From an uncultured archaeon (lineage in GTDB: Archaea; Iainarchaeota; Iainarchaeia; Iainarchaeales; CSSED10-239): a stretch of DNA of 32,000 bases. Of this stretch, positions 4,970 to 26,407 are shown piece after piece; within the stretch, counting starts at the first letter, position 1; each line of letters opens with the position of its first letter. Made by a program: the position numbers and the translations under genes. A model generated the notes under the pieces. It worked only from the letters and a program-made list of their open reading frames with translations, had not been told where the DNA came from and did no database searches. The stretch covers positions 1 through 32,000 of the forward strand of contig CAZCAP010000002.1 in the NCBI GenBank assembly GCA_964496765.1, given 5' to 3'.

Positions 4970-5002
4970 GTATATAACAAGTTAAATTGAATGTGAAATA
5001 TT

Positions 5003-5665
5003 ATGGCAGAAGAAGTTGTTTTTGAGGATTTCCAACCAAAGGAAATTAAATTTAAAAAATATTTAGAATTAAGAGATATAACCATAGCTTGGCTTGCCAT
5101 ATCTATTTGCTTTGCACTAGTTCTTGGTGGATTTAATGTGATTGCAGGAATTAAAATAAAATTTTTATTTGCCTGGGCAAAACTTCCACTATATTTGATC
5201 ATTTCATTAATAGTTACAGGAACATCCTTTATTTTACATGAATTAGCACACAAATATTCAGCAATATACATTGGTGCAAAAGCTAAATTTGTAATGTGGA
5301 GAAATTCATTAATACTTTCTGTTGCTTTTTCTGCAATTGTTGGATTTGTTTTTGTTGCTCCAGGTGCAGTTTATATTTATGGGAAAAGGTTAACCATTAA
5401 AGAAGATGGATTAACATCACTTGCTGGCCCAGCAATAAATATTATTATGGGATTTATATTTATTATTATATTTATTTTACTTGGCTCACCACAAACTGGA
5501 CTTGCATCACTAATAATTAGCTACGGAATTTTTATTAATTTCTGGATTGCATTATTCAATCTTCTTCCAATAGGTCCATTGGATGGAAGAAAAATATTCA
5601 CCTGGAATCCAGCAATCTGGGTAATTGCAACTGCAATTCCAGTATTGTTTTTATTTATATTCTAG
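5003..5665 (+). CDS. Site-2 protease family (M50) intramembrane metalloprotease
   Basis: HELAHK zinc motif within a TM helix, plus the distal NLLPIGPLDG motif. The protein is polytopic. Confidence 0.8.
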   Translation: MAEEVVFEDFQPKEIKFKKYLELRDITIAWLAISICFALVLGGFNVIAGIKIKFLFAWAKLPLYLIISLIVTGTSFILHELAHKYSAIYIGAKAKFVMWRNSLILSVAFSAIVGFVFVAPGAVYIYGKRLTIKEDGLTSLAGPAINIIMGFIFIIIFILLGSPQTGLASLIISYGIFINFWIALFNLLPIGPLDGRKIFTWNPAIWVIATAIPVLFLFIF

Positions 5666-5675
5666 TGCAAGATAT

Positions 5676-7844
5676 TTATTGAATATATCTTGCAATAGTT
5701 CTATCTTCTTTAAATGAATCATAAATAGAATCTGTATTATTTTCTTTCAGATTTTTTCTCATTTTTTCAAAAATCTGGGTTATGTGCTTTTCCTTTAGCT
5801 TTGTATCTTTGTAATCTGATTCCTTGATTGCAAGAAGAACTGAATCAGTAATTAATAATTGAAGATCAGCACCAGTAAATCCATTTGTTTTTTTAACAAG
5901 AGTATCCACATTAATTTTATCATGTGGTGTCTTCTTTAAAAGAACATCAATTATCTCTTTTCTGTCTACATCACTAGGAACTCTGAACTCAATTATTTTA
6001 TCTATTCTTCCTGAACGAAGGAATGACTTATCAATTAGATCAGGGCGATTACTTGCAGCAACAAACACGATGTCTTTTCCTGAAATGTTATCGAGCTCAG
6101 ATAATAATTGATCAAGAACTTTTGTTTGATTTGTGTTTCCATCCTTATCTCTTGTAATGGAATCAATCTCATCAAAGAAAAGAATACAGGGTGAGACGTC
6201 CTTTGCTTTCTTAAATATGTTTCTAATTGTTTTTTCACTTTCTCCAAGATATTTATCAAGAACCTCGGGGCCCTTAACATAAATAAAATTCACTTTAAAC
6301 TCCTTAGCGCTTGCTTTAACAAACATGGTTTTTCCAGTACCAGGAAGCCCATAGAGTAATATTTTGGTTTGTGGTTTAATGTTCATTTTTTCAAGAAGCT
6401 CTTTCTTCTTGAGATTAAGATTAATAACATCTCTCATAATTTCTTTCTCATTCTTCAAAGCACCAATTGATGAATAATCTATATCTGGAATTTCGACAAA
6501 TACCTCACGAAGACCAGATGGTTGTATTAGTTTTAATGCACCCATGAAATCATTTTTTGTAATACATAATTTTTCTAGGATAGCCAAAGGAATCCCTTCA
6601 TTTTTTTTCTTTTTATCAAACAAATCCAAGTCCTTAACAGCTCTTTTGATTGAAATAATTGCAGCTTCCTTTACTAAATGCGCAAGATCTGCACCCACAA
6701 AACCATGTGTTATTTTTGAAATTTCTTTTAGAGACACGTTTTTATCCATTGGAACATTTCTAGTGTGTATTCGCAAGATATCTAATCTGCCTTCCTCATC
6801 AGGAACTGAAATATTTATTTCCCTATCGAATCTTCCTGGTCTTCTTAGAGCTGGATCAATGTCTGAGCTTCTGTTTGTTGCACCAATAATAATTACATCC
6901 CCACGATTACTCATTCCATCCATTGATGCAAGGAGTTGGGCAACAACTCTTTTTTCAACCTCATTAACTAGATTTTCTCTTTTTGGTGCAATTGCATCAA
7001 TCTCATCAATAAATATAATTGCTGGAGTCTTGCTTTGTGCTTTCTTAAATATCTGTCTTAGGCGTTCCTCTGCTTCTCCAACATATTTTGCCATAATTTG
7101 AGGCGCATCAAATGCAATAAAGTTTGCTTTCAACTCATTTGATAGTGCTTTTGCTAAAAGTGTTTTTCCAGTTCCTGGAGGTCCATAAAGTAGAATTCCC
7201 TTTGGAGGAGTAACATTTAATTTATTAAATAATTCAGGATACTTGAATGGAAGTTCAACCATTTCCTTTACTGCATCCATTTGTTTTCTTAAACCACCAA
7301 CATCCTCATAGCCAATAAATGTTTCTGCTTTTAATTGGGTTATTGGCTTTTTACTAACTACAAAATTAGTTGCATCAGATAAGATTACACAACCTGCAGG
7401 CTTAGTTTCTTTAATATAATAAAGATAACTTGTTCCAAACACATTTATCATAACAGTGTTACCTTCTAGGAAGGGTCTTCCAAGAAAGCTTCTTTTAATA
7501 ATTAGATCATAGTTATCTGATAACAGATTTACTTCCTTTAGGGGCACCATAACAATTTCTTGGGCAATTTGAGGATTAATCTTTTTAATTGTAACTATAT
7601 CTCCTATTGTAACTCCTGCATTCTGTCTTGTGTATTGATCCATTCTAATTGTATTTTCATCCAGTGGATTATTTTTCTCAGGCCATACTTGAGCAACAGT
7701 TTTCTTTTCACCCATTATCTCAATAACGTCTCCAGAGATGATTTCAAGCTTTTGCTTAAGAATAACAGATAAGGTAATTATTCCTTTCCCAATATAATCT
7801 CCAAGAGCTTCCTGGACTTTAAGTTTGATTTCTGTTTCTTGCAT
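5676..7844 (-). CDS. cdc48: CDC48/VCP/p97-type AAA+ ATPase (two AAA domains)
   Basis: N-terminal CDC48_N-like beta-barrel region. D1 has Walker A GPPGTGKT and Walker B IIFIDEIDA. D2 has Walker A GLPGTGKT and Walker B ILFFDEIDS. 722 aa. Confidence 0.9.
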   Translation of the reverse strand: MQETEIKLKVQEALGDYIGKGIITLSVILKQKLEIISGDVIEIMGEKKTVAQVWPEKNNPLDENTIRMDQYTRQNAGVTIGDIVTIKKINPQIAQEIVMVPLKEVNLLSDNYDLIIKRSFLGRPFLEGNTVMINVFGTSYLYYIKETKPAGCVILSDATNFVVSKKPITQLKAETFIGYEDVGGLRKQMDAVKEMVELPFKYPELFNKLNVTPPKGILLYGPPGTGKTLLAKALSNELKANFIAFDAPQIMAKYVGEAEERLRQIFKKAQSKTPAIIFIDEIDAIAPKRENLVNEVEKRVVAQLLASMDGMSNRGDVIIIGATNRSSDIDPALRRPGRFDREINISVPDEEGRLDILRIHTRNVPMDKNVSLKEISKITHGFVGADLAHLVKEAAIISIKRAVKDLDLFDKKKKNEGIPLAILEKLCITKNDFMGALKLIQPSGLREVFVEIPDIDYSSIGALKNEKEIMRDVINLNLKKKELLEKMNIKPQTKILLYGLPGTGKTMFVKASAKEFKVNFIYVKGPEVLDKYLGESEKTIRNIFKKAKDVSPCILFFDEIDSITRDKDGNTNQTKVLDQLLSELDNISGKDIVFVAASNRPDLIDKSFLRSGRIDKIIEFRVPSDVDRKEIIDVLLKKTPHDKINVDTLVKKTNGFTGADLQLLITDSVLLAIKESDYKDTKLKEKHITQIFEKMRKNLKENNTDSIYDSFKEDRTIARYIQ

Positions 7845-9236: not shown

Positions 9237-9409
9237 ATTTAATGCACCAATATAAATAGTAGAAAGAAACTAATATAAATAGTTAGATTGTACTAAAAGG
9301 AACACTTATTACCTATTTTTTAAAATAACTATATTTAAAATAGTTTCTAGTAATATATTTAATATATAAGTCTATTTTTATATAATATAAAATAAATAAT
9401 TGATAAAAT

Positions 9410-9613
9410 ATGGAAAAATTAACAAAATATGAAGTAACAAGATTACTTTCTGCAAGAGCTGAACAGATATCATCTGGTGCTCCTCCACTTGTTAGAACCA
9501 AGAAGGATGACACACCCTATGAGCTTGCAATAATAGAATTTGATAAAAAAAGAATACCACTTGCTGTGATTAGAACAACAAATGGAATACAGGAAATTAT
9601 AAGTGTGAATTAA
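9410..9613 (+). CDS. rpoK: DNA-directed RNA polymerase subunit K (Rpo6)
   Basis: LTKYEVTRLLSARAEQISSGAPPLV...IAIIEFDKKRIPLAVIR matches the conserved RpoK/Rpb6 core. 67 aa. Confidence 0.85.
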   Translation: MEKLTKYEVTRLLSARAEQISSGAPPLVRTKKDDTPYELAIIEFDKKRIPLAVIRTTNGIQEIISVN

Positions 9614-9614
9614 T

Positions 9615-9896
9615 ATGGGAAAAGCAATGTCAAATGCCATAAAGGCAAAAGCAAAAATAATAATAACTGAGTTTAAAGATAAGCTTAGTATTGAGTTTAA
9701 GAAGAACAAGGACTTTTTAAAAAGCATGAATCTTCCATTATCTAAGTTAACAATCAACCTAATGGCAGGATACATTACAAGAAACTTCAAGAAAGAAAAG
9801 AAAGCTTCTGAAGAGCTTAATAATCTTGGAGCAAAAAGTAGAGATGCTAATAAAATACCTATGAAAGAAGCAAAAGACACACAAATACATGGTTAA
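9615..9896 (+). CDS. rps17e: 30S ribosomal protein eS17 (S17e)
   Basis: N-terminal MGKA..., a basic helical protein with a conserved AGYITR segment (INLMAGYITRNFKK) as in archaeal S17e. It starts 2 nt after rpoK. Confidence 0.6.
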   Translation: MGKAMSNAIKAKAKIIITEFKDKLSIEFKKNKDFLKSMNLPLSKLTINLMAGYITRNFKKEKKASEELNNLGAKSRDANKIPMKEAKDTQIHG

Positions 9897-9932
9897 TTGC
9901 AATTCTTTCCTTTTTTTAATTTTTTTTATAAA

Positions 9933-10964
9933 TTAATATTCTAATTTATATCTTAGAATACCAATAATACCACCAAAGGACTTTAGTGTTTCTGTGGTTT
10001 GGTGCTCATTATCCACTATATGTACTTTAGTTTTAATTTTTTCTGCATTCTTAATTAGTGCTTGTATTTTATCAAGATTGTCTTTCCATAGTTTTTCGGA
10101 TATTAGAAGATATTCAATTGCTCCTGTATTTATTGTTTCTTCAATTTTTTTTAGCCCATAGATTGCTTTACCATTGTCCTTGCCAAGATATTCTTTAAAA
10201 GTGTCCAACATTTCTTGCTCTTTATAAATAATTGAGTTTTCAAAAAATTTACTAACTTCTTTTTTTGAGAAGAGCTCACTAATTGATGCTCTAGAAGTGT
10301 TTGATAATTGAATTTCAAGAGGTTTAATTTTATTATTTTTGTTTTTAATAAATCCAGAGAGCATAACCTTAACATGCCCAGGCCCAGCAATAATCACTTG
10401 ATATTCAGTTTCTTTAATTAATTCAAATATTTTTTCAAAGAAAGAAGAATAATCAAAACTATCGGAATACCTCTTACCATGCTTACCTGAAGGGATGGTT
10501 GCAATATCTTTAATCCCTATATCTGAAAGAATAAAAACATCTGCTTTTTCATCATCAATTGCTATTAGAAATATTTTATTGGTTATTGTTTTACTAGATT
10601 TAATTAAATCAATTTCATGATCAAATAGGTTTTGCTTTAATAGAGTATACTTGGATCCAAGAGAGATCTCTAGAGTATGGTGATCACCTATTGGCGCAAC
10701 ATCCTGGGGTTTAGAATCAATAATCCTGCCAGTGAATCTTAGTGAATCAATTGTTGAAGAATAATCGAACTTTTCAATCTTGATTGAAACAAAGATAGGT
10801 ATTCTTTTCGAATCTCCTGTTTCATCAATCTTTGATCTCCTAAAAGAAGTACCTTTAATTATGTCACCTATCTCAACAATACTTTTTAGTATCCAGAGAT
10901 CTTCAATGGTTTGAAGAGTGAACACTATTTCTTTTTCTTTTTTATTCAGGTGGATTACATTCAT
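9933..10964 (-). CDS. pelA: Pelota/Dom34 ribosome-rescue factor
   Basis: 343 aa. The N-terminal Sm-like region (TIEDLWILKSIVEIGDIIKGTSFRR) and the eRF1-like central and C-terminal domains (ETINTGAIEYLLISE) are present. Confidence 0.85.
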   Translation of the reverse strand: MNVIHLNKKEKEIVFTLQTIEDLWILKSIVEIGDIIKGTSFRRSKIDETGDSKRIPIFVSIKIEKFDYSSTIDSLRFTGRIIDSKPQDVAPIGDHHTLEISLGSKYTLLKQNLFDHEIDLIKSSKTITNKIFLIAIDDEKADVFILSDIGIKDIATIPSGKHGKRYSDSFDYSSFFEKIFELIKETEYQVIIAGPGHVKVMLSGFIKNKNNKIKPLEIQLSNTSRASISELFSKKEVSKFFENSIIYKEQEMLDTFKEYLGKDNGKAIYGLKKIEETINTGAIEYLLISEKLWKDNLDKIQALIKNAEKIKTKVHIVDNEHQTTETLKSFGGIIGILRYKLEY

Positions 10965-15268: not shown

Positions 15269-16021
15269 ATGGGTAAGAAAAACAAAATTCAAGAAAAACC
15301 AACTAAGCAAAAAAATTGGTATTCATTTCTTGATTACATAGATCCATTTACCTACCTCGACATGCTTCTTTATAATACTCTTGGAGAACCAAAGAGTATG
15401 GGAAAGAAAGTTCTATTTTGGATAATCTATATTGCATTTGCTTTCCTTCTCGCATACATACTTTATACTCTTTTAGGAATTATTTTTGGATCAACCATGC
15501 CTCTAGCAACAGTAGTTTCTGGATCAATGGAACCAACCTTTCAAAGAGGGGATGTTGTTGTATTAGGGGGCACAAAGTACATAAACGCAGAAACAGTAAT
15601 CATTAATGAAAACATTGCTCAAAAGGATCTATCCTGGTTTAGTGAAATGACCTATAAAACAAATGAATATGGGCTTGATGAAGTAAGTACAATAACAATA
15701 GATAATCAAACAATTAAATTTGATGATATTATTAAAAATAATAATTCTGTTGTAGTGTACACATCAAACATTCAGGGCATACCAATAATTCATCGTGTTG
15801 TTGCAATCATAGATGCAAAGGATGGAATATTCATAATTACAAAGGGAGATAATAGTAAAACAAATAGATATATTGATCAAGATTGTGAGGTGTCTCCATT
15901 AACAGGATATGCAACCAAAGGATGTCTAAATCTCTACCCAGTAAAGATAGATAGTTTACTTGGAAAGAAAATTGGATTAATCCCATATATTGGATATGCA
16001 AAACTATTTTTATTTGGATAA
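15269..16021 (+). CDS. Signal peptidase I, archaeal/ER Sec11 type (S26B)
   Basis: N-terminal TM anchor, catalytic Ser box VVSGSMEPTFQRGDVVVL, His box IIHRVV, and GDN box TKGDNS. Confidence 0.8.
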   Translation: MGKKNKIQEKPTKQKNWYSFLDYIDPFTYLDMLLYNTLGEPKSMGKKVLFWIIYIAFAFLLAYILYTLLGIIFGSTMPLATVVSGSMEPTFQRGDVVVLGGTKYINAETVIINENIAQKDLSWFSEMTYKTNEYGLDEVSTITIDNQTIKFDDIIKNNNSVVVYTSNIQGIPIIHRVVAIIDAKDGIFIITKGDNSKTNRYIDQDCEVSPLTGYATKGCLNLYPVKIDSLLGKKIGLIPYIGYAKLFLFG

Positions 16022-16861: not shown

Positions 16862-18069
16862 ACACTAAATTCTTCGTATAATAATTCATTTATTGATTTT
16901 GGATCAACACCCAATCTAATTAAAGTTGTGCTTCCTCTCATTCCTTTTCCTGATTCTGTAGTTGAAATGAAACCATAGGTTTCAAGTTCATTAATGTATT
17001 CTCTAAACCAACGCATGGAAACAGGCTTTTCTCCAAACTTTTTTGTAAGTAGCGTGTATTTTTCATATATTTCTCCAGAATATAATACATTTTCTTCTAG
17101 TGAACCATCTATCTTTAATATGCCTTTTGGTTTTTCTGATTTTTCAGAAATTGCAAGAAGAACTAATTGTAATTGAACTGGGAGGGTTAACACCATGCTT
17201 TTCATAATTTCTTGCTCAACCTTTTCCTTTGCTAAATAAACTTCCTTATCAGTAACCTCTTTCTTTTGATGTAAATCCGCAAGCTCTCCAGCTCTCAATA
17301 GGAGCATGACAGCTGTTCTTGCATCCCCTGATTCTTTTGCTGCAATTGCTGCAGCAATAGCTATAGCTGAATCTGTAACAACCTTGGGTCTAAATGCTAA
17401 ACTAATTCTTTGATTTAATATTTCTTTTAATTCCTCTGCATTGTAGGGTGGATAAACTGCTTCCTGTTCACAGAGTGTACTTTTTGTTCTTTGATCTAAT
17501 CTTGATTTAAAGAAAAGATTATTTGAGATTCCTATGATGGAAACACTTCCAAGATCAAGTTCATCATTTGCTCTTGTTAGGGTATACACAAGATCATCAA
17601 TCTCCTTATCTTTGATTTTATCTATTTCATCTAAAATAACTACGAAATTCATTTTAGTATCTTTAATGTAGGATATGAATTTATCATAAATGAAAGATCT
17701 TGAATATCCAATGAAATTTTTATCAGAATAAAATAGCTGAACACAATAAAAAAGAACAGCGTATTTAGTTTGATAATTTCTACAATTTAAGTAAATTGAT
17801 TGAAAAGGTAAATTATTTTCCTTTGAAACATCCACTAATTGATCAACAACGTGCCTTACAACTGTTGTTTTTCCTGTTCCAACTTTACCATAAATAAAAA
17901 CATTGTGTGGTTTTTCTTTTTTCAAAGCAGGAGATAACCAGATAGAAAGAGTTTTAATTTGCTTATCCCTAAAAGGTAATTTTTCTGGTGCATAATGTGG
18001 AGAAATTTTGTTTTTGTCAATAAAAACAGATTCCTGGTTTAGAAACCCATAAAATATATTCTCAGACAT
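16858..18069 (-). CDS. cdc6: Orc1/Cdc6 replication initiator (AAA+ plus C-terminal winged helix)
   Basis: N-terminal PFRDKQIKTL, Walker A GKVGTGKTT, Walker B VVILDEIDK, sensor region GDARTAVMLL, and a C-terminal wH-like domain. 403 aa. Confidence 0.9.
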   Translation of the reverse strand: MSENIFYGFLNQESVFIDKNKISPHYAPEKLPFRDKQIKTLSIWLSPALKKEKPHNVFIYGKVGTGKTTVVRHVVDQLVDVSKENNLPFQSIYLNCRNYQTKYAVLFYCVQLFYSDKNFIGYSRSFIYDKFISYIKDTKMNFVVILDEIDKIKDKEIDDLVYTLTRANDELDLGSVSIIGISNNLFFKSRLDQRTKSTLCEQEAVYPPYNAEELKEILNQRISLAFRPKVVTDSAIAIAAAIAAKESGDARTAVMLLLRAGELADLHQKKEVTDKEVYLAKEKVEQEIMKSMVLTLPVQLQLVLLAISEKSEKPKGILKIDGSLEENVLYSGEIYEKYTLLTKKFGEKPVSMRWFREYINELETYGFISTTESGKGMRGSTTLIRLGVDPKSINELLYEEFSV

Positions 18070-18137
18070 TCTTATTTACACCCTTAATTAGATATAATAT
18101 ATAGGATTCAAATACTTTTTATATGTTTGTTCTCTCA

Positions 18138-18150
18138 TATCCAGTGGATA
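18138..18150. promoter_or_regulatory. Perfect dyad TATCCA-G-TGGATA between the divergent cdc6 and small-gene promoters (ORB-like or operator candidate)
   Basis: A 6-bp inverted repeat with a 1-nt spacer, seen directly in the sequence. It sits about 70 nt upstream of the cdc6 ATG. From memory, its CCAGTGGA core resembles the dyad core of archaeal ORB/mini-ORB elements. Confidence 0.3.
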
Positions 18151-18160
18151 GTAGATAATT

Positions 18161-18232
18161 TAACAAAGTTTATAAATTAAACCTATAAATATATATTTAT
18201 TAAAATTACAAATTAAAGGAGATTGAAAAAAT
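18161..18232 (+). promoter_or_regulatory. Conserved promoter/5'UTR module of the Cys-rich small-protein family (copy 1a)
   Basis: AAAGTTTATAAAT (TATA-like, 64 nt before the ATG), then ATATATTTATTAAA, ATTACAAA, GGAG and TGAAAAAATATG. The same blocks in the same order occur upstream of 20550 and 25791. Confidence 0.6.
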
Positions 18233-18514
18233 ATGGATAAAAAAATAATGCCAATCCTTTTTTTAATAGTGGGATTAATAATAGGGCTTGTGGTTGGATG
18301 GTTAATATTTAATGGAGCATCAAGCACAGGAGACGCAAAAGCAATCACAAATAATTCAATTAATTTAGGAGATGCTGCTGGAGCAAGTTGTACACCAGTT
18401 CCACACACATGTTCAGGAACTGTTGGTATTTGTACAACAAATACATGTGTTACTAATGATGGAAAATCATATTTTGATTGTTCTCATTGTAACTTTGAAA
18501 CATCCACTAATTGA
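18233..18514 (+). CDS. Small Cys-rich protein with conserved hydrophobic leader (family member 1a; C-terminus altered by the duplication junction)
   Basis: Leader MDKKIMPILFLIVGLIIGLVVGWLIFNGASSTGDAK, then a 6-Cys core (SCTPVPHTCSGTVGICTTNTCVTNDGKSYFDCSHC). The last 7 residues (NFETSTN) read across the junction into antisense cdc6 sequence. Confidence 0.65.
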   Translation: MDKKIMPILFLIVGLIIGLVVGWLIFNGASSTGDAKAITNNSINLGDAAGASCTPVPHTCSGTVGICTTNTCVTNDGKSYFDCSHCNFETSTN

Positions 18515-18741
18515 TCAACAACGTGCCTTACAACTGTTGTTTTTCCTGTTCCAACTTTACCATAAATAAAAACATTGTGTGGTTTTTCTTTTTTCAAAGC
18601 AGGAGATAACCAGATAGAAAGAGTTTTAATTTGCTTATCCCTAAAAGGTAATTTTTCTGGTGCATAATGTGGAGAAATTTTGTTTTTGTCAATAAAAACA
18701 GATTCCTGGTTTAGAAACCCATAAAATATATTCTCAGACAT
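18484..18741 (-). pseudogene. Truncated Orc1/Cdc6 N-terminal fragment created by the tandem duplication
   Basis: 85-aa ORF. It is identical to cdc6 residues 1-82, including Walker A GKVGTGKTT, then has 3 junction-derived residues and a stop. It keeps a duplicated copy of the cdc6 upstream region. Confidence 0.8.
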
Positions 18742-18809
18742 TCTTATTTACACCCTTAATTAGATATAATATATAGGATTCAAATACTTTTTATATGTTT
18801 GTTCTCTCA

Positions 18810-18822
18810 TATCCAGTGGATA
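18810..18822. promoter_or_regulatory. Second copy of the TATCCA-G-TGGATA dyad (inside duplication copy 2)
   Basis: Identical sequence 672 nt downstream of the first copy. Confidence 0.3.
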
Positions 18823-18832
18823 GTAGATAATT

Positions 18833-18904
18833 TAACAAAGTTTATAAATTAAACCTATAAATATATATTTATTAAAATTACAAATTAAAGGAGATTGAAA
18901 AAAT
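18833..18904 (+). promoter_or_regulatory. Conserved promoter/5'UTR module of the family (copy 1b)
   Basis: Identical to 18161..18232 and lies within duplication copy 2. Confidence 0.6.
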
Positions 18905-19183
18905 ATGGATAAAAAAATAATGCCAATCCTTTTTTTAATAGTGGGATTAATAATAGGGCTTGTGGTTGGATGGTTAATATTTAATGGAGCATCAAGCACA
19001 GGAGACGCAAAAGCAATCACAAATAATTCAATTAATTTAGGAGATGCTGCTGGAGCAAGTTGTACACCAGTTCCACACACATGTTCAGGAACTGTTGGTA
19101 TTTGTACAACAAATACATGTGTTACTAATGATGGAAAATCATATTTTGATTGTTCTCATTGTAAATTTGCAAGCCAAAGTTAG
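18905..19183 (+). CDS. Small Cys-rich protein with conserved hydrophobic leader (family member 1b; presumed native C-terminus)
   Basis: 92 aa. Identical to 1a through ...DCSHC, then ends KFASQS. It has 6 Cys. A 9-bp inverted repeat (19184..19192 and 19212..19220) follows the stop. Confidence 0.7.
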   Translation: MDKKIMPILFLIVGLIIGLVVGWLIFNGASSTGDAKAITNNSINLGDAAGASCTPVPHTCSGTVGICTTNTCVTNDGKSYFDCSHCKFASQS

Positions 19184-19201
19184 TGAATATACAAAAATAA
19201 A

Positions 19202-20383
19202 TTATGAAAAAGTATATTCAAATATTTCTGTTTTTTTTATTGTTTCTTTTATTAGATTATCTCCTTTTGGATTTATATCTTGCTCAAAATTAAGGATATC
19301 ATCATACCAACCTTTTGTTACTGGGTGATCAGAGTTCATAAAAGAACAACAATCAGGGTAGGGAATTATGGATGATTCATAGGTTCCTATTTTTTTTGCA
19401 AGTTCAATTATTTCATCTTTATTCATTCCTATTAGAGGAGAAAGAATGGGTAGATAACTTGCTTTGTAAATGCAATTTATATTATCAAGAGTCTGAGATG
19501 CTACTTGACCTAATGAATCGCCAGTAACAATACCTTTTGCTCTTTCAGTTACTGCAATTTTGTTCATTATCTTAAGCATATACCTTCTGTAAACTATCAT
19601 ACGATGGGTTGATGGAATATTTGCAATTATTTCTTTTTGAATATCTGAAAAAGGAACTATATATAATTTGGATTTACCTTGGAACTTGGTTAATTGATTA
19701 ACAAGTAACTTTATTTTGTTTTTTACTTCTTCTTTAACAAGTGAATTATTGTATATGTGTACAAAAACAACCTCACATCCTCTTTTCATCATTAGATATC
19801 CAGCAACTGGTGAATCTAGTCCACCTGATAAAGAACATATAACTTTAGAAGTGGATCCAACAGGAAGACCACCAATTCCAGTAACTTTATTTATATAAAT
19901 TATTGTTTCTTTATCCCCTACTTCAATATACACACTTATTTCTGGAGTGTGCACATCTACCTTTTTATTTAAGGTTACAAGAATATATTCTCCTAGTTGT
20001 TCATTAATTTCTTTAGAATTCATAGGAAATTTCTTGTTAGATCTTCTTGCAACAACCTTAAAAGTAGTAAAATTAGTTAGCTTTAGGAGTTCAATGGTTT
20101 TTTCTTTAATGTCTATAAAATCATTCTTTGCTTTTCTTGAGAAAGAAAAGTATGCTATTCCTGGTATTCTTAATAATATTTCTTTTATTTTATTTTCATC
20201 TTTTTCTTGAACAAAAGAAAGGTCGATTAGGATTGAACCGTATCTCTTAGTTATTCCTCCTTTTAGAATAGATAACATATTAGTTATATTAGATACAAGC
20301 TTGTCTTCGAATAGATATCTATTATTACCTTTAATTGCTATTTCGTTATAATGAACTATTATAAAATCATACATTTTAATCAC
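19202..20383 (-). CDS. thiI: tRNA 4-thiouridine synthase ThiI (THUMP + PP-loop ATPase, no rhodanese domain)
   Basis: N-terminal ferredoxin-like/THUMP region, PP-loop SLSGGLDSPVA, and C-terminal PDCCSF. The length of 393 aa matches the short archaeal/Bacillus form. Confidence 0.85.
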   Translation of the reverse strand: MIKMYDFIIVHYNEIAIKGNNRYLFEDKLVSNITNMLSILKGGITKRYGSILIDLSFVQEKDENKIKEILLRIPGIAYFSFSRKAKNDFIDIKEKTIELLKLTNFTTFKVVARRSNKKFPMNSKEINEQLGEYILVTLNKKVDVHTPEISVYIEVGDKETIIYINKVTGIGGLPVGSTSKVICSLSGGLDSPVAGYLMMKRGCEVVFVHIYNNSLVKEEVKNKIKLLVNQLTKFQGKSKLYIVPFSDIQKEIIANIPSTHRMIVYRRYMLKIMNKIAVTERAKGIVTGDSLGQVASQTLDNINCIYKASYLPILSPLIGMNKDEIIELAKKIGTYESSIIPYPDCCSFMNSDHPVTKGWYDDILNFEQDINPKGDNLIKETIKKTEIFEYTFS

Positions 20384-20465
20384 ATAAAATTAATTTAAGA
20401 TAATATATATAATTACGACTTCAAACTATTTAAATTATAATGGATATAGAGATACAAATTGAGAC

Positions 20466-20549
20466 GTTAATTCCACAAGGTTTATAAATGATTATTATTA
20501 GTATATATTTATTAAATTTAAATTACAAACTAATGGAGTATGAAAAAAT
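20466..20549 (+). promoter_or_regulatory. Conserved promoter/5'UTR module of the family (copy 2)
   Basis: GTTAATTCCACAAGGTTTATAAATGATTATTATTAGTATATATTTATTAAATTTAAATTACAAACTAATGGAGTATGAAAAAAT. It is nearly colinear with 25710..25790. The TATA-like box is 69 nt before the ATG, and GGAG lies upstream of the ATG. Confidence 0.6.
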
Positions 20550-20786
20550 ATGAATAAAAATACGATGGGAATCCTTCTTCTAATAGTTGGATTAATAATA
20601 GGACTTGTTGTTGGGTGGTTAATATTTAATGGAGCTACCAGCACAGGAGATGCAAAAGGAATATTGAAAGGAACATCAACAGCAAATGGGTACTGTGAAG
20701 GTGGAGAAGAGTGTACAGGGCTATCAATGGCTCTATGTAATTCACAACCAGAGTGCTATTGGATCCCTGATTCAACAACCAGGTAG
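20550..20786 (+). CDS. Small Cys-rich protein with conserved hydrophobic leader (family member 2)
   Basis: Leader MNKNTMGILLLIVGLIIGLVVGWLIFNGATSTGDAK, then an unrelated 42-aa core with 4 Cys (YCEGGEECTGLSMALCNSQPECYW). Confidence 0.7.
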   Translation: MNKNTMGILLLIVGLIIGLVVGWLIFNGATSTGDAKGILKGTSTANGYCEGGEECTGLSMALCNSQPECYWIPDSTTR

Positions 20787-20801
20787 GTAAATAACTAACC
20801 T

Positions 20802-20828
20802 AAAGAGGGCATCATCCTCTTTTTCTTT
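20802..20828 (+). terminator. Hairpin plus T-run downstream of family member 2
   Basis: AAAGAGG (20802-20808) pairs with CCTCTTT (20816-20822) around a 7-nt loop, followed by TTCTTT. It starts 16 nt after the stop codon. Confidence 0.45.
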
Positions 20829-21046
20829 GATTTTACACCCAAATTACGAAAATACTATTTCTTTCGAGAATAGAAGCGAATACTTTAAATATCATTTCAT
20901 ATATAATATTAGCAGAAAACCAAGAAAATCTGGTTTTTTATTAGAAAAGGAATACAAATTTCTTTTTATATATTTTGGTATATAATTTATATACTAATTT
21001 ATAATATTTTAAAAAAATAGGAACTAAAACTTTGAGGTGAGCTAGC

Positions 21047-21391
21047 ATGGCGTTTTTAGATAAAATGTTTAATAAAAAAGAAGATGTAGATATCGAAGAT
21101 GTTCTAAACAACATGGATGTCGAAGTAATTGAAGAAGATGTTGACTTCTATGTTAAGCCAATAATCTTACAAGCAAACACAGATATTGAAGCAACAATTA
21201 AAGAATTAAAAAATAGAAACCTAGTTCTTTTAGATATAGAAAATATCTCAAAGAGAAACGCACAAAGAGCTAAACAATTTGTTGGACAATTAAAAATGTT
21301 TGTTGCTGATAATGGTGGAGATATGGCAATGATCTCAAAAACCAAATTATTACTTGTTCCTTCAAAAGTAAAAATTATTAAAAAGGTTTAA
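21047..21391 (+). CDS. sepF: Cell division protein SepF (DUF552)
   Basis: 114 aa. The N-terminal amphipathic MAFLDKMFNKK resembles a membrane-targeting helix. The core is PIILQANTDIEATIKELKNRNLVLLDIENIS...AQRAKQFVGQL...GGDMAMISKTKLLLVP. A GAGGTGA Shine-Dalgarno-like sequence lies upstream. Confidence 0.8.
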   Translation: MAFLDKMFNKKEDVDIEDVLNNMDVEVIEEDVDFYVKPIILQANTDIEATIKELKNRNLVLLDIENISKRNAQRAKQFVGQLKMFVADNGGDMAMISKTKLLLVPSKVKIIKKV

Positions 21392-21410
21392 ATTAAAAAA
21401 GTAATCTAAA

Positions 21411-22145
21411 ATGGAAATAGATAAAAAACGTTTTCCCATAAATATCAAAGAATCTAAGTACGCAGTAAAAATCTTTCAGGATGCCCTTAAAAAAAGAGGG
21501 CACGATCATGAAATAAAAAAGGAAGACGTTTATCTCACCATAACACCCTATTGGGTCGCATTCTATGACATCGGATATACTACTGAAAAATATACTCATG
21601 CTTCTGGACAGATTACATTAAATGCAGTTACAAATAATATTAATGATTATATAATCAAACTATTTGATATTGAAAAACCAGCTATTTTTAAGAACGTTAA
21701 TATTCAAAAGGCAGAAAACAATAAAGTATTTCTAAAGGAACCAATCATCAACGAAGAAGAAGCTAGAAAAACAATTACTAAAGAGCTTGTACAAAGATTT
21801 AATGTTGAAGAAAAAAATGTGTCTCTTTCTGGGGTTGAAGAAATTTATGTACCCTATTGGAAGCTCAAGACAAAGGAACATAATAAACTTAAATTTGATG
21901 CTATTGATGGAAGTGTAAACAATTTCAAAACCATTAACGAAAAAGAAGCAACATACACTGATATGTATAAGGAAATGGTTAATGATTTAAAATCTTCAAA
22001 AAAAATATCAGGATATATTGGAAACATATTAAAAGCAATTGGAAGAGGAATTACAATTATGCTACGTGAAGCATGGGCTCATTTCAAATTACTTATTATA
22101 ATTATAGGCATTGCATTAATTATTTATTTTTTATTCTTTTGGTAA
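21411..22145 (+). CDS. Hypothetical tail-anchored protein with two PYW-containing modules
   Basis: 244 aa. It has an internal repeat-like pair (LTITPYWVAFYD and EIYVPYWKLKTK) and a single C-terminal TM helix (LLIIIIGIALIIYFLFFW). It starts 19 nt after sepF. Confidence 0.5.
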   Translation: MEIDKKRFPINIKESKYAVKIFQDALKKRGHDHEIKKEDVYLTITPYWVAFYDIGYTTEKYTHASGQITLNAVTNNINDYIIKLFDIEKPAIFKNVNIQKAENNKVFLKEPIINEEEARKTITKELVQRFNVEEKNVSLSGVEEIYVPYWKLKTKEHNKLKFDAIDGSVNNFKTINEKEATYTDMYKEMVNDLKSSKKISGYIGNILKAIGRGITIMLREAWAHFKLLIIIIGIALIIYFLFFW

Positions 22146-23063
22146 AATTGCTCGTATTTCTGAGATTGTTTTTGCTTTAGAAATCCTATCTCTTAGTACA
22201 CTACTTTTAGGTGTTCCTTTTATGAATGGGATTATTGAAACTTTAAACTTAGGGAAGGAGGTAGGATACTTTTCCCAAAGGTTTACATATTCATGTAAGG
22301 CCTTTAGTTTATCTTCTCTAGTTATCTCTTCTTTGTTCCCATTGATCAAATCAAATATTCCTGGATTACCAAGTGCTCCTCGTGCAACCATGACTCCATC
22401 AAAATCAAGATAATCTTTATAGTTATCTTCAGTAACATCCCCATTATAGATAATTGGAATTGGAGATATTTTTTTAATTCTTCTAACCTCATCCGACTTT
22501 GGTGGAATTGCATAGCTACATTTTGCACATCTTGCATGAATTGCAAGCGCATCTATTCCAGTTTTAAAAAATTCATTTGAAATAAAATCAATTTCATTCT
22601 TTGTGAATCCAAGTCTTGTTTTAATGGTTACTGGTTTGGTGGTGGTTTCACAAATTTCTTTAATTATTGGAGTTACTTTTGTTACATCCTTTAGAAGACC
22701 AGAACCACTACTTCCAGAAATTATTCTTTGGGACGGGCATCCAAAATTCAAATCAATAATATCAAAGTGTTTGTGCTTATCTATTATTGATATTGCTTCT
22801 AGGGTTGTTTTCTTATTAGTAAAATCTCCAACTAATTGACATGAGGTGGGAGAATCTTCTGCTGTGGACCTTAATATTTCTTCATCAAATAACTCATCTC
22901 TAGAAAGATTAACTAAATGATTTGTATGAATCATTTCAGTATAGCAGAGCCCACAATTGTGCGCTCTTGCGAGTTCTCTATAGGGAAGTGTCGAAAACTC
23001 AAGGATTGGAGCAAGAATCCCCTGGTTCCTAATAGGAACCTTTCCTATCTTAAATTTAATCAT
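22131..23063 (-). CDS. dus: tRNA-dihydrouridine synthase (Dus family)
   Basis: IDLNFGCPSQRI catalytic-Cys motif, TIM-barrel flavoenzyme pattern (VTIKTRLG, ALAIHAR), 310 aa. Confidence 0.8.
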   Translation of the reverse strand: MIKFKIGKVPIRNQGILAPILEFSTLPYRELARAHNCGLCYTEMIHTNHLVNLSRDELFDEEILRSTAEDSPTSCQLVGDFTNKKTTLEAISIIDKHKHFDIIDLNFGCPSQRIISGSSGSGLLKDVTKVTPIIKEICETTTKPVTIKTRLGFTKNEIDFISNEFFKTGIDALAIHARCAKCSYAIPPKSDEVRRIKKISPIPIIYNGDVTEDNYKDYLDFDGVMVARGALGNPGIFDLINGNKEEITREDKLKALHEYVNLWEKYPTSFPKFKVSIIPFIKGTPKSSVLRDRISKAKTISEIRAILPKE

Positions 23064-23243
23064 ATATAATTAAGGTTAATAACTATTTAAAAACAAATAA
23101 TAAAGTTAGATGACTGGTAATAATAAGGAGCAGGCCTAATAAAAAGAAAATGCTTATAAAAAGATTTGCTCCTAATATATATACTAATTATAAAATTAGA
23201 TAAAACTACATAAATATAAAAACTAAACAAAAGCGTGAAACTT

Positions 23244-24554
23244 ATGAAATGGAGTAAAGAAACTGTAATATCTATAATAATCGTAATATTATTCGTTGGA
23301 TCAATATTTGGAATGGCAATTGGAAGTGGAAGTAGATCAGACATAGGAAATAATAATGATACGAACATAACACCTTCTAATCCTGATGAAAACCTACCCA
23401 CTGAATTCTTTAGTGCCTATGTGGACTCCAATGTTCTTGAAATCTATCCTCAATTCGTTGTTGTGAGCAACACAAACATCTATGATCAAACAACATTAGA
23501 CACCAAACTAAAACAAATTAGTGGTATTAAAAAAAATACAATTAGTTTCAATAAGGGAGAAGATCAAAATATAACTACAATGATTAAAATAGTTATTGAT
23601 GCAGATAAGAGAGATCAAATTATAGAGGATCTTCAAAAAACAGATTATTTATTAAATCCACAAATTTATGTGAGTGCATTGCTTACAATGCCAAAAGAAA
23701 AAGTAACATTATCTGGAGACAATAATACTACTAGAGAATATGAGTTTACTGAAAGTCAGATTGATGGAGTAGTAGGAATAAATACAGAAAGGGGAGATGA
23801 GCTGAATGCTCAAATTCAAATTGTATTTCAAGGAAACACTCCAGTTAGATTCCTCGCAATTGAGTATCAAAACACTTCTGCAAACCCACAAATGATGGCA
23901 ACCACAAAGATAATTCCAATTAAGGAATGGGAACCAGCAATTAGAGTTTATGCAACCTCTTCAATCACAAAAGAATTTGATGTTAATGAAATTAAAGATG
24001 TTATTGGAGATGAAAACCAAGTAATTGGAAGAAGTGTTGAGGGTTCTCTCACCATAAACCTAGAAAACAATTTAGATACAAATAATATTAATGATTACCT
24101 AACAGGAATCAAAGACGAAAATGAAACTGTAATCAAAGATCTTACAATTGATGAAAATCAAGCAAGTGTTGAATTTGAAATGAATCTAAAAACAGAAAAA
24201 TATGATTCAATCAAGAACCAGCTACTTGAATTTGGAATAGATTCCTCAAAAATCAATAGCGAACCAAACAATATATACAGAATTGAATACAGTGTAGGTG
24301 ATCTTAATCTAGATTTAATTAATAATAAACTTGTAGCTAGTGGACTAGCACTTAAGTATTCAGAAAAAAATGCAATCTTTGATGTGTCAACAATTGAATA
24401 TCAAGGAAAAGTACTAACCTCAGATTCAAACACATCAAATGCTTGGTTACTATATCCTGATGATTTAAGTAAAACAGAAGTAGATTTGATAATTCAAGGA
24501 TATTATACCAGAAACAATCTTTGGTTTATAGAATTAAAAGAAAATAGAGAATAA
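23244..24554 (+). CDS. Hypothetical N-terminally anchored extracellular protein
   Basis: I prefer the ATG at 23244 (MKWSKETVISIIIVILFVGSIFGMAIG) to the ORF-track GTG at 23235. It has one N-terminal TM or signal helix, then about 400 aa that are Asn/Thr/Glu-rich with no motif I recognise. Confidence 0.5.
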   Translation: MKWSKETVISIIIVILFVGSIFGMAIGSGSRSDIGNNNDTNITPSNPDENLPTEFFSAYVDSNVLEIYPQFVVVSNTNIYDQTTLDTKLKQISGIKKNTISFNKGEDQNITTMIKIVIDADKRDQIIEDLQKTDYLLNPQIYVSALLTMPKEKVTLSGDNNTTREYEFTESQIDGVVGINTERGDELNAQIQIVFQGNTPVRFLAIEYQNTSANPQMMATTKIIPIKEWEPAIRVYATSSITKEFDVNEIKDVIGDENQVIGRSVEGSLTINLENNLDTNNINDYLTGIKDENETVIKDLTIDENQASVEFEMNLKTEKYDSIKNQLLEFGIDSSKINSEPNNIYRIEYSVGDLNLDLINNKLVASGLALKYSEKNAIFDVSTIEYQGKVLTSDSNTSNAWLLYPDDLSKTEVDLIIQGYYTRNNLWFIELKENRE

Positions 24555-24571
24555 ATAATTTATTCTCTTAC

Positions 24572-24910
24572 TTATTTTTTATTTGCAAGCTCAATTGCTT
24601 CTGCAATATCTCCACTAGTCTCAAGAAGTAGTTCCTTTGCTTTATCTTTGGATATTTTTGAGGTTTCAGAAACCATAACAACATCTTCTTCAGGAATTTC
24701 TTTCTCTCCTTCAGAAATATCTCCGGCTATTTGAAAGCTTCTATTCCCCTGCATGTTAATCTCAGTAACTGATGGATTAGTAATTATTATGTTTCCGTTA
24801 TCAGTTTCAATAACTACTCTTTTTGCATCAATTTCCTTGTTCTCAATACCCATTTGCTTCATCATAGCATTTATCTTTCTAGGATCTAGTCCATTCATTC
24901 CTGGAATCAT
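24572..24910 (-). CDS. nac: Nascent polypeptide-associated complex protein (archaeal NAC, NAC + UBA domains)
   Basis: MIPGMNGLDPRKINAMMKQMGI... is the NAC domain, and the C-terminal UBA-like end reads AKELLLETSGDIAEAIELA. 112 aa. Confidence 0.85.
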   Translation of the reverse strand: MIPGMNGLDPRKINAMMKQMGIENKEIDAKRVVIETDNGNIIITNPSVTEINMQGNRSFQIAGDISEGEKEIPEEDVVMVSETSKISKDKAKELLLETSGDIAEAIELANKK

Positions 24911-25056
24911 AGTTATTTCTCCTTTAAATATTATGTTACTATAAATAATATGTGTGGAAAGTAATAAAAAGGATTTAGACTACATAAAATAAAGATTTAT
25001 AACCTTTAGTATACATTATATTTTTAATTAAAAGAATAAGTTAAGTAAGATTAAAC

Positions 25057-25683
25057 ATGCAAAATGGACTTCCAAGTAACTACGAATCAATTGAAAAACA
25101 ACTAAATATTAAGATTCCTGAAACAGATAAAGAATATTTAAATGCTTTTTTAAAGAAAAAATCATTTCACATAGTTAATAGAAAGATTATTTATCCAAAA
25201 ATAGAGGATGTTAAGTATATTGTTGAAAAACTTAGTTCTGAGGTTAGGGAACTAAAATCAACAAGCGATTTTTGGAAAAAAGAAAAAAACACAGCTGAAA
25301 AGTATCACAGGCTATTACCAATTAACATGGTTCTAAAGAAGAACTATTGGAGACATAATGTTAAAAAACTAATTAATAAGAAATACAAGCAGGACATAAT
25401 TGATGCTAAGCTAAATGATAGAATCCTATTGGACCCAGAATACAAGAATCTTTTTGAAACCTTCCTTGTTGATCCAGACTATAGAAAAAAGCTAAAGGAC
25501 ACAGTAAACAATTCAATCATATACAAGAACAACAAGATTGGAGACTATAGCATAAGAAAGCAGGAGTTTAAGAAAACAAGTGCTGAGCTTAAGGTCAAGC
25601 AGGTAGAAGAACAAATTAAAGATGCGACCCATAGGCTAAAGATATACGAAAAAGTATATGAATATCTAAAGAGATACGGTTAA
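25057..25683 (+). CDS. Hypothetical Lys-rich, probably helical protein
   Basis: 208-aa ORF with genome-typical composition and a TATA-like box upstream. I recognise no motif. Confidence 0.45.
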   Translation: MQNGLPSNYESIEKQLNIKIPETDKEYLNAFLKKKSFHIVNRKIIYPKIEDVKYIVEKLSSEVRELKSTSDFWKKEKNTAEKYHRLLPINMVLKKNYWRHNVKKLINKKYKQDIIDAKLNDRILLDPEYKNLFETFLVDPDYRKKLKDTVNNSIIYKNNKIGDYSIRKQEFKKTSAELKVKQVEEQIKDATHRLKIYEKVYEYLKRYG

Positions 25684-25709
25684 ATAAATATCAAATTAAG
25701 GGGGGGCCA

Positions 25710-25790
25710 GTTAATTTTGCAAGGTTTATAAATGATTATTACTGTATATATTTATTAAATTTAAATTAAAAAACTTAAGGAGATAAAATT
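25710..25790 (+). promoter_or_regulatory. Conserved promoter/5'UTR module of the family (copy 3)
   Basis: GTTAATTTTGCAAGGTTTATAAATGATTATTACTGTATATATTTATTAAATTTAAATTAAAAAACTTAAGGAGATAAAATT. It matches copy 2 at most positions. The TATA-like box is 66 nt before the ATG. Confidence 0.6.
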
Positions 25791-26237
25791 ATGGATAAGA
25801 AATCAATGCCAATCCTTCTTCTAATAGTCGGATTGATTATAGGAATCATTGTTGGATGGTTAATATTTAATGGAGCATCTAGCACAGGAGAAGCAAAAGG
25901 TGTATTAAAGAATGATTTACTACCTCCTAATGTTGTTGAAAAACAAGCAGATGGTAGTACACTCGTAAATTTAAATTATAAGGAAACGAATTCAACAACA
26001 GGAGTAACAACTTGTAAAAAAATATCTCAATTAATTGCACCATCAGAAGGTGAAGCTGATAGTATAGTTTATAATATAACATGTACAGGATCATGCACCG
26101 GCGATATGTGTAACATTTCTGGATGCACTCCAGCAGATGGAGGACAATGTACTGGATGTTTCTGTAGTGGAGATGCTTGTAGTGCATGTACTTGTTCACG
26201 ATCAGTCTCTGGAGCTACTTGGCCACCAGCAAGTTAA
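25791..26237 (+). CDS. Cys-rich protein with conserved hydrophobic leader (family member 3, longest core)
   Basis: Leader MDKKSMPILLLIVGLIIGIIVGWLIFNGASSTGEAK, then a 112-aa core. Ten of its 11 Cys fall in residues 98-135 (CTGSCTGDMCNISGCTPADGGQCTGCFCSGDACSACTC). Tandem stop codons TAATAA. Confidence 0.7.
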   Translation: MDKKSMPILLLIVGLIIGIIVGWLIFNGASSTGEAKGVLKNDLLPPNVVEKQADGSTLVNLNYKETNSTTGVTTCKKISQLIAPSEGEADSIVYNITCTGSCTGDMCNISGCTPADGGQCTGCFCSGDACSACTCSRSVSGATWPPAS

Positions 26238-26255
26238 TAATGACAATATTAATAA

Positions 26256-26292
26256 GTAGATATTAAAAATATCTGCTTCTATTTTTTCTTTT
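26256..26292 (+). terminator. Hairpin plus T-rich tract downstream of family member 3
   Basis: GTAGATATT (26256-26264) pairs with AATATCTGC (26268-26276); this gives 9 bp with one G-U pair and a 3-nt loop. It is followed by TTCTATTTTTTCTTTT. Confidence 0.45.
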
Positions 26293-26407
26293 AAATATAA
26301 TTAATATCTTATTTAAATCTCAAGATTTCTTTTTTTCAAGTTTTAAAAATATTTATATTATCTTCTGTTTCTAATATATTATATAGATGATGGACTAGAT
26401 ATAATAT

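Follow-up and report, generated by a model that had tools for sequence, protein, structure and literature searches.

We analyzed a 32,000-nt stretch of DNA from an uncultured archaeon (positions 1 to 32,000 of contig CAZCAP010000002.1, assembly GCA_964496765.1; hereafter, the window), which carries genes for a family of small proteins with a common promoter, a common hydrophobic leader, and different Cys-rich cores. An earlier reading of the sequence alone had pointed to four such open reading frames (ORFs) on the plus strand. All four are present (members 1 to 4 in Table 1), and the first 36 residues of their products are 83-100% identical pairwise, which bears out the claim that the leader is nearly identical. 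The leader matches exactly four places in the window by tblastn (E = 1e-16 to 5e-21), and the next-best match has E = 0.46. The cores of members 2, 3, and 4 are 56, 42, and 112 amino acids long and contain 6, 4, and 11 Cys, also as claimed. The neighbors are housekeeping genes, as had been described: orc1, thiI, sepF, valS, a kinase gene, and the gene for ribosomal protein S15.

The sequence-only reading had treated the four places as independent loci. Instead, there are three distinct members and one duplicate: members 1 and 2 lie in an exact tandem duplication, whose two units (Table 1) are the same at all 672 positions in a base-by-base comparison. Copied along with most of the small gene are the intergenic region and 85 codons from the start of orc1/cdc6. 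Because of the duplication junction, member 1 ends with a chimeric tail of 7 residues (NFETSTN) that is encoded by antisense orc1. At the junction, the small gene's 3' end is fused to the interior of orc1, and the microhomology there is only ~4 nt (TTTG). In the related contigs L011 (assembled independently; 106,123 bp; 99.96% identical to the window on both sides), L012, and L013, this region is present as a single copy, so the window contains three distinct members (m2, m3, and m4) and the duplication is private to this contig. (Here and below, L numbers refer to related loci and P numbers to protein records.) The duplication may be genuine strain variation or an artifact of chimeric assembly. 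The exact 93-aa product of member 1 has no entry in a collection of 15 billion proteins. A version of it that starts at Met6 (88 aa, P0025) and likewise ends in NFETSTN has been recorded from a single contig, and the row for P0025 lists a longest contig of 106,864 bp. Met6 starts appear in several public gene calls (P0025, P0027, and P0029, which are 88-, 87-, and 73-aa versions of the window genes at 18233, 18905, and 20550). The family-wide conservation of M-[DN]-K-K and the position of the GGAG support Met1 as the likely true start.

Table 1. Family members in the window, with their expression signals, the tandem duplication, and the nearby signal peptidase gene.
Feature	Position	Strand	Remarks
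Member 1, 93 aa	18233..18514	+	Duplicate copy of member 2; last 7 residues from antisense orc1
Member 2 (m2), 92 aa	18905..19183	+	35-36-aa leader, 6-Cys core of "m2 type"
Member 3 (m3), 78 aa	20550..20786	+	4-Cys core; identical to P0001
Member 4 (m4), 148 aa	25791..26237	+	Leader, beta-rich N-domain, 11-Cys tail; orthologue P0008
Promoter/5' UTR module, member 1	18154..18232	+	DNA alignment, repeat families D1/D3/D4, sequence
TATA box TTTATAAAT, member 1	18169-18177	+	GGAG Shine-Dalgarno ends 11 nt before ATG
Promoter/5' UTR module, member 2	18826..18904	+	TATA at 18841-18849
Promoter/5' UTR module, member 3	20466..20549	+	GTTAATT, BRE-like CAAGG, TATA, ATATATTTATTA, GGAG
TATA and GGAG, member 3	TATA 20481-20489; GGAG 20535-20538	+	Sequence
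Promoter/5' UTR module, member 4	25710..25790	+	TATA at 25725-25733, GGAG at 25779-25782
3' hairpin (GAATATAC...GTATATTC) and T-run, member 2	19185..19238	+	Overlaps convergent thiI 3' end
Terminator-like hairpin and T-run, member 3	20802..20832	+	Sequence
Hairpin AGATAT-TAAAA-ATATCT and T-run, member 4	26258..26292	+	Position kept after P0008 in L007
Duplication unit 1	17821..18492		5' 249 nt of orc1, orc1/member intergenic region, most of member 1
Duplication unit 2	18493..19164		85-codon orc1 fragment ORF (18484-18741, minus strand), most of member 2
Sec11-type signal peptidase I homologue	15269..16021	+	phmmer against PDB: 7p2q SEC11C, E = 3.9e-11; 7p2p SEC11A, E = 9e-11; weak Peptidase_S26 match

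The sequence-only reading had also proposed a common 5' module, and the DNA alignment agrees: conservation extends from ~85 nt upstream of the ATG through codons 35-36. Among the three distinct members, identity is 65-78% over the 85 nt before the ATG and 34-47% further upstream. The DNA that encodes the leader is 83-86% identical between distinct members, and beyond codon 36 identity is only 43-52%. The module contains, in order, GTTAATT, a CAAGG that resembles a BRE (BRE is short for transcription factor B recognition element), a TATA box, a ATATATTTATTA block, an AU-rich 5' untranslated region (UTR) of ~40 nt, and GGAG. The conserved ATATATTTATTA block should be the transcription start. A 22-nt block with the BRE and the TATA box (CAAGGTTTATAAATGATTATTA) occurs exactly twice in the window, at m3 and m4, where 0.01 occurrences are expected by chance. 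A hairpin and/or a T-run is found at the 3' end of each gene, again as had been noted. This shared set of predicted signals (promoter, 5' UTR, GGAG, and terminator) indicates that each gene in the window is organized as its own transcription unit. An Rfam scan of the window gave no matches.

To describe the leader, we compared 27 sequences in total. In an alignment of 18 leaders, G14, L24, F26, G33, and A35 are invariant, and M1, G18, G22, W23, and K36 are nearly so. The leader is composed of a Lys-rich N-terminus, a hydrophobic core, and a polar stretch that ends in TG[N/D/E/Q][A/G]. The core runs for ~19-22 residues, from position 7/8 to F26 (the uncharged run reaches 27 residues in some members), and has Gly at i, i+4, and i+8, followed by Trp-Leu-x-Phe. 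K or R is found within the first 3-9 residues in 27/27 members. The helix is preceded by P in about one-third of members and by K, N, H, or R in the rest. The conserved block closes with G-x-[A/G] in all 26 of 26 members, and the sequences diverge right after it (K, TK, VK, or Y).

Archaeal Sec signals have a tripartite layout with small residues at -3 and -1 and are removed by signal peptidase I (PMC6098224). The leader looks like such a tripartite Sec signal, with G-x-A fitting a signal peptidase I site. Motif patterns for class III signals, lipoboxes, and Tat signals matched 0/27 members. (The class III pattern was [KRDE][GA] before the helix, modeled on FlaFind.) In two members, a Cys lies in the c-region of the leader, just upstream of G-x-A, and their core Cys count is even only without that Cys, which is a small hint that there is a real boundary at G-x-A. 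The Sec11-type peptidase that the sequence-only reading had named at 15269 was recovered by phmmer, with SEC11C as the match from PDB (Table 1). It lies 2 kb from the family and is a candidate for the enzyme that would remove the leader. Judging from these sequence features, the leader is probably cleaved after G-x-A by a signal peptidase.

The cores had been described as unrelated and hypervariable. Within the window this stands, as the cores are just 14-16% identical and cannot be aligned. It does not stand across genomes, where the m2 and m4 cores have orthologues (54% and 47% identity, respectively). In the m2-type orthologues P0002, P0007, and the member from L025, all six Cys are aligned, and between m4 and its orthologue P0008 the Cys are conserved and the beta-rich N-domain is well conserved. 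In L020, a subfamily of five members has a common 60-residue domain without Cys, which is followed by a variable Cys tail. The sequences are better described as several distinct core types, each kept across genomes yet fast-evolving and shuffled among sites.

The composition of the cores is unusual: they contain 8.7% Cys, 10.8% Gly, 10.9% Thr, and 9.6% Asn, as compared to 1.1%, 4.9%, 5.7%, and 5.4%, respectively, in the housekeeping proteins of the window. The number of Cys is even in 20 of the 26 members that were tallied (binomial P = 0.005, which is only indicative because the members are not independent). None of three cores that were searched had a match below E = 0.1 among PDB sequences (phmmer). 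Seven members from elsewhere, and none from the window, have similar C-termini: ASLD (twice), AALD, AAID, NPLD, LGID, and ATID. (These members are L020:50-340, 4852-5325, 5386-5682, 9384-9845, and 9906-10379; P0002; and P0003.) The similar endings hint at a second motif, for C-terminal processing or sorting.

The family is not confined to this assembly, and members were found well beyond what duplication in the assembly could account for. A leader profile (HMMER) had 23 matches among 1.84 billion protein cluster representatives, and about 17 of these 23 have the full leader and a Cys-rich core. More members were identified by scanning the fetched loci with a hidden Markov model of the leader and by running one degenerate DNA pattern against JGI metagenomes. 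One contig (L020/L024) contains 8 members in 30 kb. All of the members come from few metagenome samples and from a narrow clade of lake-metagenome archaea, and the housekeeping DNA of member-bearing genomes is roughly 80% identical to that of the window. In two relatives whose valyl-tRNA synthetases (ValRS) are 80% and 70% identical, there was no member near valS, and synteny is lost there. Viral contigs from IMG/VR had no member with either leader spacing.

The sequence-only reading recognized no characterized family, and neither did our searches: for the window members, Pfam, NCBIfam, PHROGs, and PADLOC gave only weak transmembrane-like matches below the cutoffs, and the module has no match in PDB. 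The sole NCBIfam listing for the leader was FlaK, below threshold, at E = 0.19. A word-index protein search returned 0 matches for a 3-sequence leader alignment and only 12 for a 19-sequence full-length alignment. A strict back-translated pattern (GWLIFNGA[ST][ST]TG) had 0 matches in GTDB genomes and 0 in JGI metagenomes because it is too specific. Searching GTDB genomes with 6 leader sequences yielded only two bacterial transmembrane look-alikes and showed no GTDB species representative to be a carrier. In literature searches, we came across no account of a family of this kind in archaea.

Many public short-read contigs are cut off within a member's leader or 70-175 nt upstream of the member (L002, L003, L005, L006, L014, L016, and L017). 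Copy numbers in metagenome-assembled genomes (MAGs) are probably underestimated, because a repeated module of ~190 nt is expected to break assembly graphs. The family is easy to miss because the module breaks short-read assemblies and because of the Met6 starts in public records.

The window has a GC content of about 30% and encodes Orc1/Cdc6, PriL, NAC, SepF, S3Ae, S15, RpoL, Cdc48, the Sec11 homologue, and two T2SSF-family proteins. The nearest named relatives of its ValRS are from MAGs labeled Ca. Diapherotrites (64-67% identity), followed by Aenigmatarchaeota, Woesearchaeota, and Nanoarchaeota (54-56%). These ValRS neighbors back the guess of the sequence-only reading that the DNA is from a reduced, DPANN-type archaeon. 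From sequence, it is well supported that the source is a DPANN archaeon related to Ca. Diapherotrites.

Across the related genomes, members occupy four intergenic gaps of an otherwise collinear housekeeping block. Close relatives differ at each of these hot spots, which may be empty, hold another core type, or hold a tandem array. At site A, between orc1 and thiI, the window has the m2-type gene; L018/L019 have another 6-Cys core (P0006); L033 has P0018 and P0005 in tandem; L026 has a core that by eye is m4-like; and L028 is empty, with a 90-nt gap. At site B, between thiI and sepF, the window has m3, L017 and L024 have a P0009-type member with 12 Cys, L016 and L028 have two tandem members, and L018 is empty with a decayed remnant of the promoter. 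At site C, between the gene for a 208-aa protein and valS, the m4-type gene of the window is also found in L007; L025 and L027 have an m2-type gene, L020 has two tandem members of 153/157 aa, and L018 is empty. Site D, between the kinase gene and the gene for S15, is empty in the window, L018, L025, and L027, and is occupied by an m2-type gene in L006, by P0003 in L014, and by four tandem members in L020. The same core type is thus found at different hot spots depending on the genome, as with the m2 type at A (window), C (L025 and L027), and D (L006).

The empty thiI|sepF site of L018 has a degenerate promoter module (TTAATTGTACTGGGTTTATTAATTATTCAT, L018:11540-11610) and no ORF. This remnant looks like the scar of a lost member. 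When the m2-type genes at sites A, C, and D were compared for defined cassette ends or target-site duplications, their homology was seen to begin at the promoter module and to stop at the stop codon, without a 3' end in common, and we found no flanking direct repeats when comparing filled to empty sites. Neither a recombinase nor a reverse transcriptase (as in a diversity-generating retroelement) was found among the window ORFs that were scanned. The only long repeats in the window are the leader module and the 672-bp duplication.

The cores gain amino acid changes about 10 times faster than the flanking genes. (dN and dS are the rates of nonsynonymous and synonymous change.) Between L025 and L027, the core of the member has dN = 0.217 and dN/dS = 0.19, as compared to dN = 0.016 and dN/dS = 0.04 for ValRS. 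Between m4 and P0008, dN is 0.316 for the leader, 0.254 for the N-domain of the core, and 0.587 for the Cys tail (dN/dS = 0.60, 0.39, and 0.66, respectively); for ValRS from the window and from L007, dN is 0.059 and dN/dS is 0.06. Similarly, neighboring proteins are 60-96% identical between the window and L018 (all but one are 76-96% identical), and at site A the leader is 64% identical and the core 33%.

The leaders have a different history from the cores. The leaders of the paralogues in the window are 77-86% identical to each other, and leaders of core orthologues or of same-site genes elsewhere are 56-69% identical. The most striking pair is L020_D4 and L020_C2, with leaders that are 89% identical and cores that are 16% identical. 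Leaders from one genome resemble each other more closely than do the leaders of orthologues, a pattern that points to gene conversion or recombination at the junction of leader and core. Among the window leaders, synonymous differences are found in 6-7 of the 28-31 codons for identical amino acids, so this homogenization would be occasional and not continuous.

The explanation that we favor, and which we consider likely, is that these genes form a lineage-specific multigene family of small, exported, Cys-rich proteins, probably disulfide-bonded, in a DPANN archaeon. The sequence-only reading had offered two layouts. The polymorphic secreted or surface effector is supported by the Sec-type leader, the Sec11 homologue, and the Cys-rich cores; the precursor of a bacteriocin or of a RiPP (RiPP is short for ribosomally synthesized and post-translationally modified peptide) is not supported. 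In the mechanism that we propose, the positive N-terminus and very hydrophobic helix would direct the nascent chain via the signal recognition particle to SecYEG, with the N-terminus in and the C-terminus out. The Sec11-type signal peptidase would then cut after G-x-A, which would leave a small domain with disulfide bonds free or exposed outside the cell. An external partner (a host cell, a competitor, or a virus) would put diversifying pressure on the repertoire, which would diversify by cassette turnover and by fast evolution of the cores. Given the pattern of variation and the DPANN lifestyle, we infer a role at the interface with a host, competitor, or virus.

Several observations weigh against this explanation. 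The number of Cys is odd in m4 (11 Cys) and in the 153-157-aa subfamily of L020 (9 or 11). AlphaFold predictions for m4 with P0008 and for m2 with P0002 and P0007 had pLDDT (the predicted local distance difference test) of 49 and 50; only the helix (residues 3-28) is confident, and the models do not demonstrate a disulfide-rich fold. N-glycosylation sequons show no enrichment (29 observed versus 36.6 expected). The average dN/dS of members is below 1 (0.19-0.66), so relaxed constraint may be the cause of the fast evolution. In L025 (a 976-kb contig), the member at site C (9820-10120) has lost the promoter module and retains only the GGAG; because of this loss and because it begins 25 nt behind the upstream gene, it is probably co-transcribed with that gene. 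Finally, the hydrophobic region of 19-22 residues, with a c-region of ~9, is long for a cleaved signal and fits a type II signal-anchor equally well, and the invariant Gly-zipper resembles a retained, interacting helix.

These last two features lead to another explanation, which we view as possible but rather doubtful: the helix might not be cleaved at all and might serve as a permanent type II membrane anchor that tethers the Cys-rich domain to the surface, with the GxxxGxxxG zipper joining members with different cores into oligomers. A hydrophobic stretch of this length can span the membrane, AlphaFold extends the helix without a break, and G14, G18, G22, and W23 are invariant or nearly so, which would be unusual for a disposable signal. 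The same helix pattern is found in bacterial N-terminal anchors, as weak matches (P0017, P0020-P0022, and a weak match to LapA_dom). However, an anchor would not need the invariant G-x-A, with its small residues at -3 and -1, and the two members with an extra Cys upstream of G-x-A have an even number of core Cys only if that Cys is left out. The products could also be secreted antimicrobial peptides, that is, Sec-dependent Cys-rich archaeocins, comparable to halocin C8 or to class II bacteriocins, that act against competitors. They are small, probably exported, Cys-rich, and strain-variable, but no gene for immunity or transport is linked to any member (the neighbors are housekeeping genes), the leader is not of the double-glycine type, and several members are 130-212 aa long with non-Cys domains. 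We consider this unlikely.

It seems quite improbable that the members are subunits like type IV pilins (compare Haloferax PilA1-6) that are assembled by the PilC/T2SSF-type proteins at 647-2401. The architecture is the same (a short charged N-terminus leads into a hydrophobic helix that is conserved, and the C-terminal domain is small and variable and contains Cys), and the window has two genes of the T2SSF family. But the class III motif (a charged residue and then G/A before the helix) is in 0/27 members; no Pfam or NCBIfam family reaches its cutoff, and this includes the archaeal pilin N-terminal domains; no prepilin peptidase was found among the window ORFs scanned; and pilins do not have a conserved G-x-A downstream of the helix. 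The idea that these are precursors of lanthipeptides (as for prochlorosins) or of other enzyme-modified RiPPs, with the maturase encoded elsewhere in the genome, has very little to recommend it beyond a conserved leader with variable cores that are rich in Cys, Ser, Thr, and Gly and are dispersed in the genome. A soluble recognition peptide would be expected, whereas the leader here is a transmembrane helix whose N-terminus is positive; several cores, at 100-175 aa and with beta-rich domains, are oversized for typical RiPP cores; and even Cys counts suit disulfides better than lanthionines. As the sequence-only reading had stated, the 32-kb window has no maturation enzyme (radical SAM, LanB/C/M, or YcaO) among the scanned ORFs of at least 90 aa, and none was called beside members in related loci. 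Lastly, spurious ORFs or assembly-made repeats might be suspected, as the first two loci form an exact tandem duplication that is found in this contig only and the module is where many public contigs break off. This idea is already refuted for the whole family, and we give it almost no weight: members recur, with conserved reading frames, in independent assemblies from JGI, ENA, Logan, and NCBI, synonymous changes are among the leader substitutions, and dN/dS between orthologues is below 1.

If the favored explanation of a family of exported Cys-rich proteins is correct, it bears on how these archaea interact with other cells. To our knowledge, host recognition and attachment by DPANN archaea are largely unknown and few candidates for specificity determinants have been proposed. 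The family is a concrete set of candidates: the proteins are small, probably exported, Cys-rich, and strain-variable, with an apparently strong shared promoter, and the leader provides a handle for searches. The family is also a clear prokaryotic case of a conserved signal with a divergent Cys-rich core, a pattern that is best known from animal toxins, and its members turn over like cassettes at fixed intergenic sites, without any visible machinery of mobile elements. More speculatively, and this we hold only as a tentative idea, the ~190-nt promoter-leader module could be a portable adaptor for expression and export and also a homology anchor for swapping core cassettes among the hot spots beside orc1. 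This would yield a strain-specific and rapidly reshuffled repertoire that decides which hosts or viruses can be engaged. If true, the family would be an archaeal counterpart of the surface-antigen families of mycoplasmas, without a dedicated recombinase.

We also noticed other features of the window. The sequence TCCAGTGGA, which we take to resemble the core of archaeal origin-recognition boxes (ORBs), is found at 18140-18148 and 18812-18820, within the 163-nt gap between orc1/cdc6 and the first member. ORB-like motifs (with at most one mismatch) have 11 matches in the window, a number that was reached by 3 of 100 shuffles, so the enrichment is not convincing; a replication origin beside the hot spots, as suggested by the position of TCCAGTGGA, is only a lead. 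Upstream of sepF (20880-21046), ~165 nt of non-coding DNA are over 90% conserved across five genomes whose DNA in general is roughly 77-85% identical to that of the window. This block includes a small hairpin with a T-run (about 20919-20940) and a second TATA-like block and has no match in Rfam; one public record has a 53-aa antisense ORF there. The block may encode a small RNA or act as a complex control region for sepF. Upstream of valS (26333-26384), ~50 nt (TTTTCAAGTTTTAAAAATATTTATATTATCTTCTGTTTCTAATATATTATA) are 100% identical in L018 and nearly so in L007, although these genomes are ~80% identical overall. Finally, two T2SSF genes (PilC/ArlJ-like) are adjacent at 647-2401, and 5003-5665 encodes an intramembrane peptidase of family M50 (site-2 protease). 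The T2SSF and M50 proteins could be considered as candidates for the assembly of the family's proteins or for degradation of the leader.

Parts of this system resemble known systems. The leader is like archaeal Sec class I signals (PMC6098224) in its positive n-region, hydrophobic H domain, and G-x-A, and a Sec11 homologue is 2 kb away. In contrast, the sequence of ordinary signal peptides is not conserved between unrelated proteins, and here 35 residues and ~85 nt of upstream DNA are held in common; also, the H domain here is unusually long and has an invariant Gly-zipper. Among archaeal proteins, PilA1-6 of H. volcanii have a fully conserved H domain and variable C-termini (PMC6098224). They are likewise archaeal paralogues with a conserved N-terminal hydrophobic domain and divergent C-terminal domains, but they have class III signals that are cut upstream of the helix by PibD, whereas the site here is like that of signal peptidase I and lies downstream of the helix.

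Outside of the archaea, the superfamilies of conotoxins and other animal toxins are each defined by a conserved signal, and the mature Cys-rich region diverges rapidly while the Cys framework is kept. Conotoxins are eukaryotic, with pro-regions and venom glands; here there are many unrelated frameworks and a conserved promoter. Prochlorosins (ProcA) are encoded by many dispersed genes with a nearly identical leader and hypervariable cores rich in Cys, Ser, and Thr. Their leaders are soluble and Nif11-like, end in GG, and need ProcM, whereas the leader here is a membrane helix and no local maturase was seen. The Vsp, Vlp, and Vsa families of Mycoplasma have a conserved 5' non-coding region and signal peptide, divergent surface regions, and a strain-variable content, in a reduced genome that depends on other cells. 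These are lipobox lipoproteins, usually clustered and switched by invertases or by promoter repeats, while the family described here has no lipobox and no recombinase among the scanned ORFs and is dispersed between housekeeping genes on one strand. In Gram-positive bacteria, the YSIRK and KxYKxGKxW signal peptides are shared by exported proteins that are otherwise unrelated; their motifs and organisms are different, and no NCBIfam model is significant for the leader here. Overall, conotoxin superfamilies, prochlorosins, and the surface lipoproteins of mycoplasmas already follow the same design principle. What is distinctive is the combination of hot-spot turnover (with no mobile-element genes detected), many unrelated Cys-rich cores, a Gly-zipper signal, and a conserved promoter.

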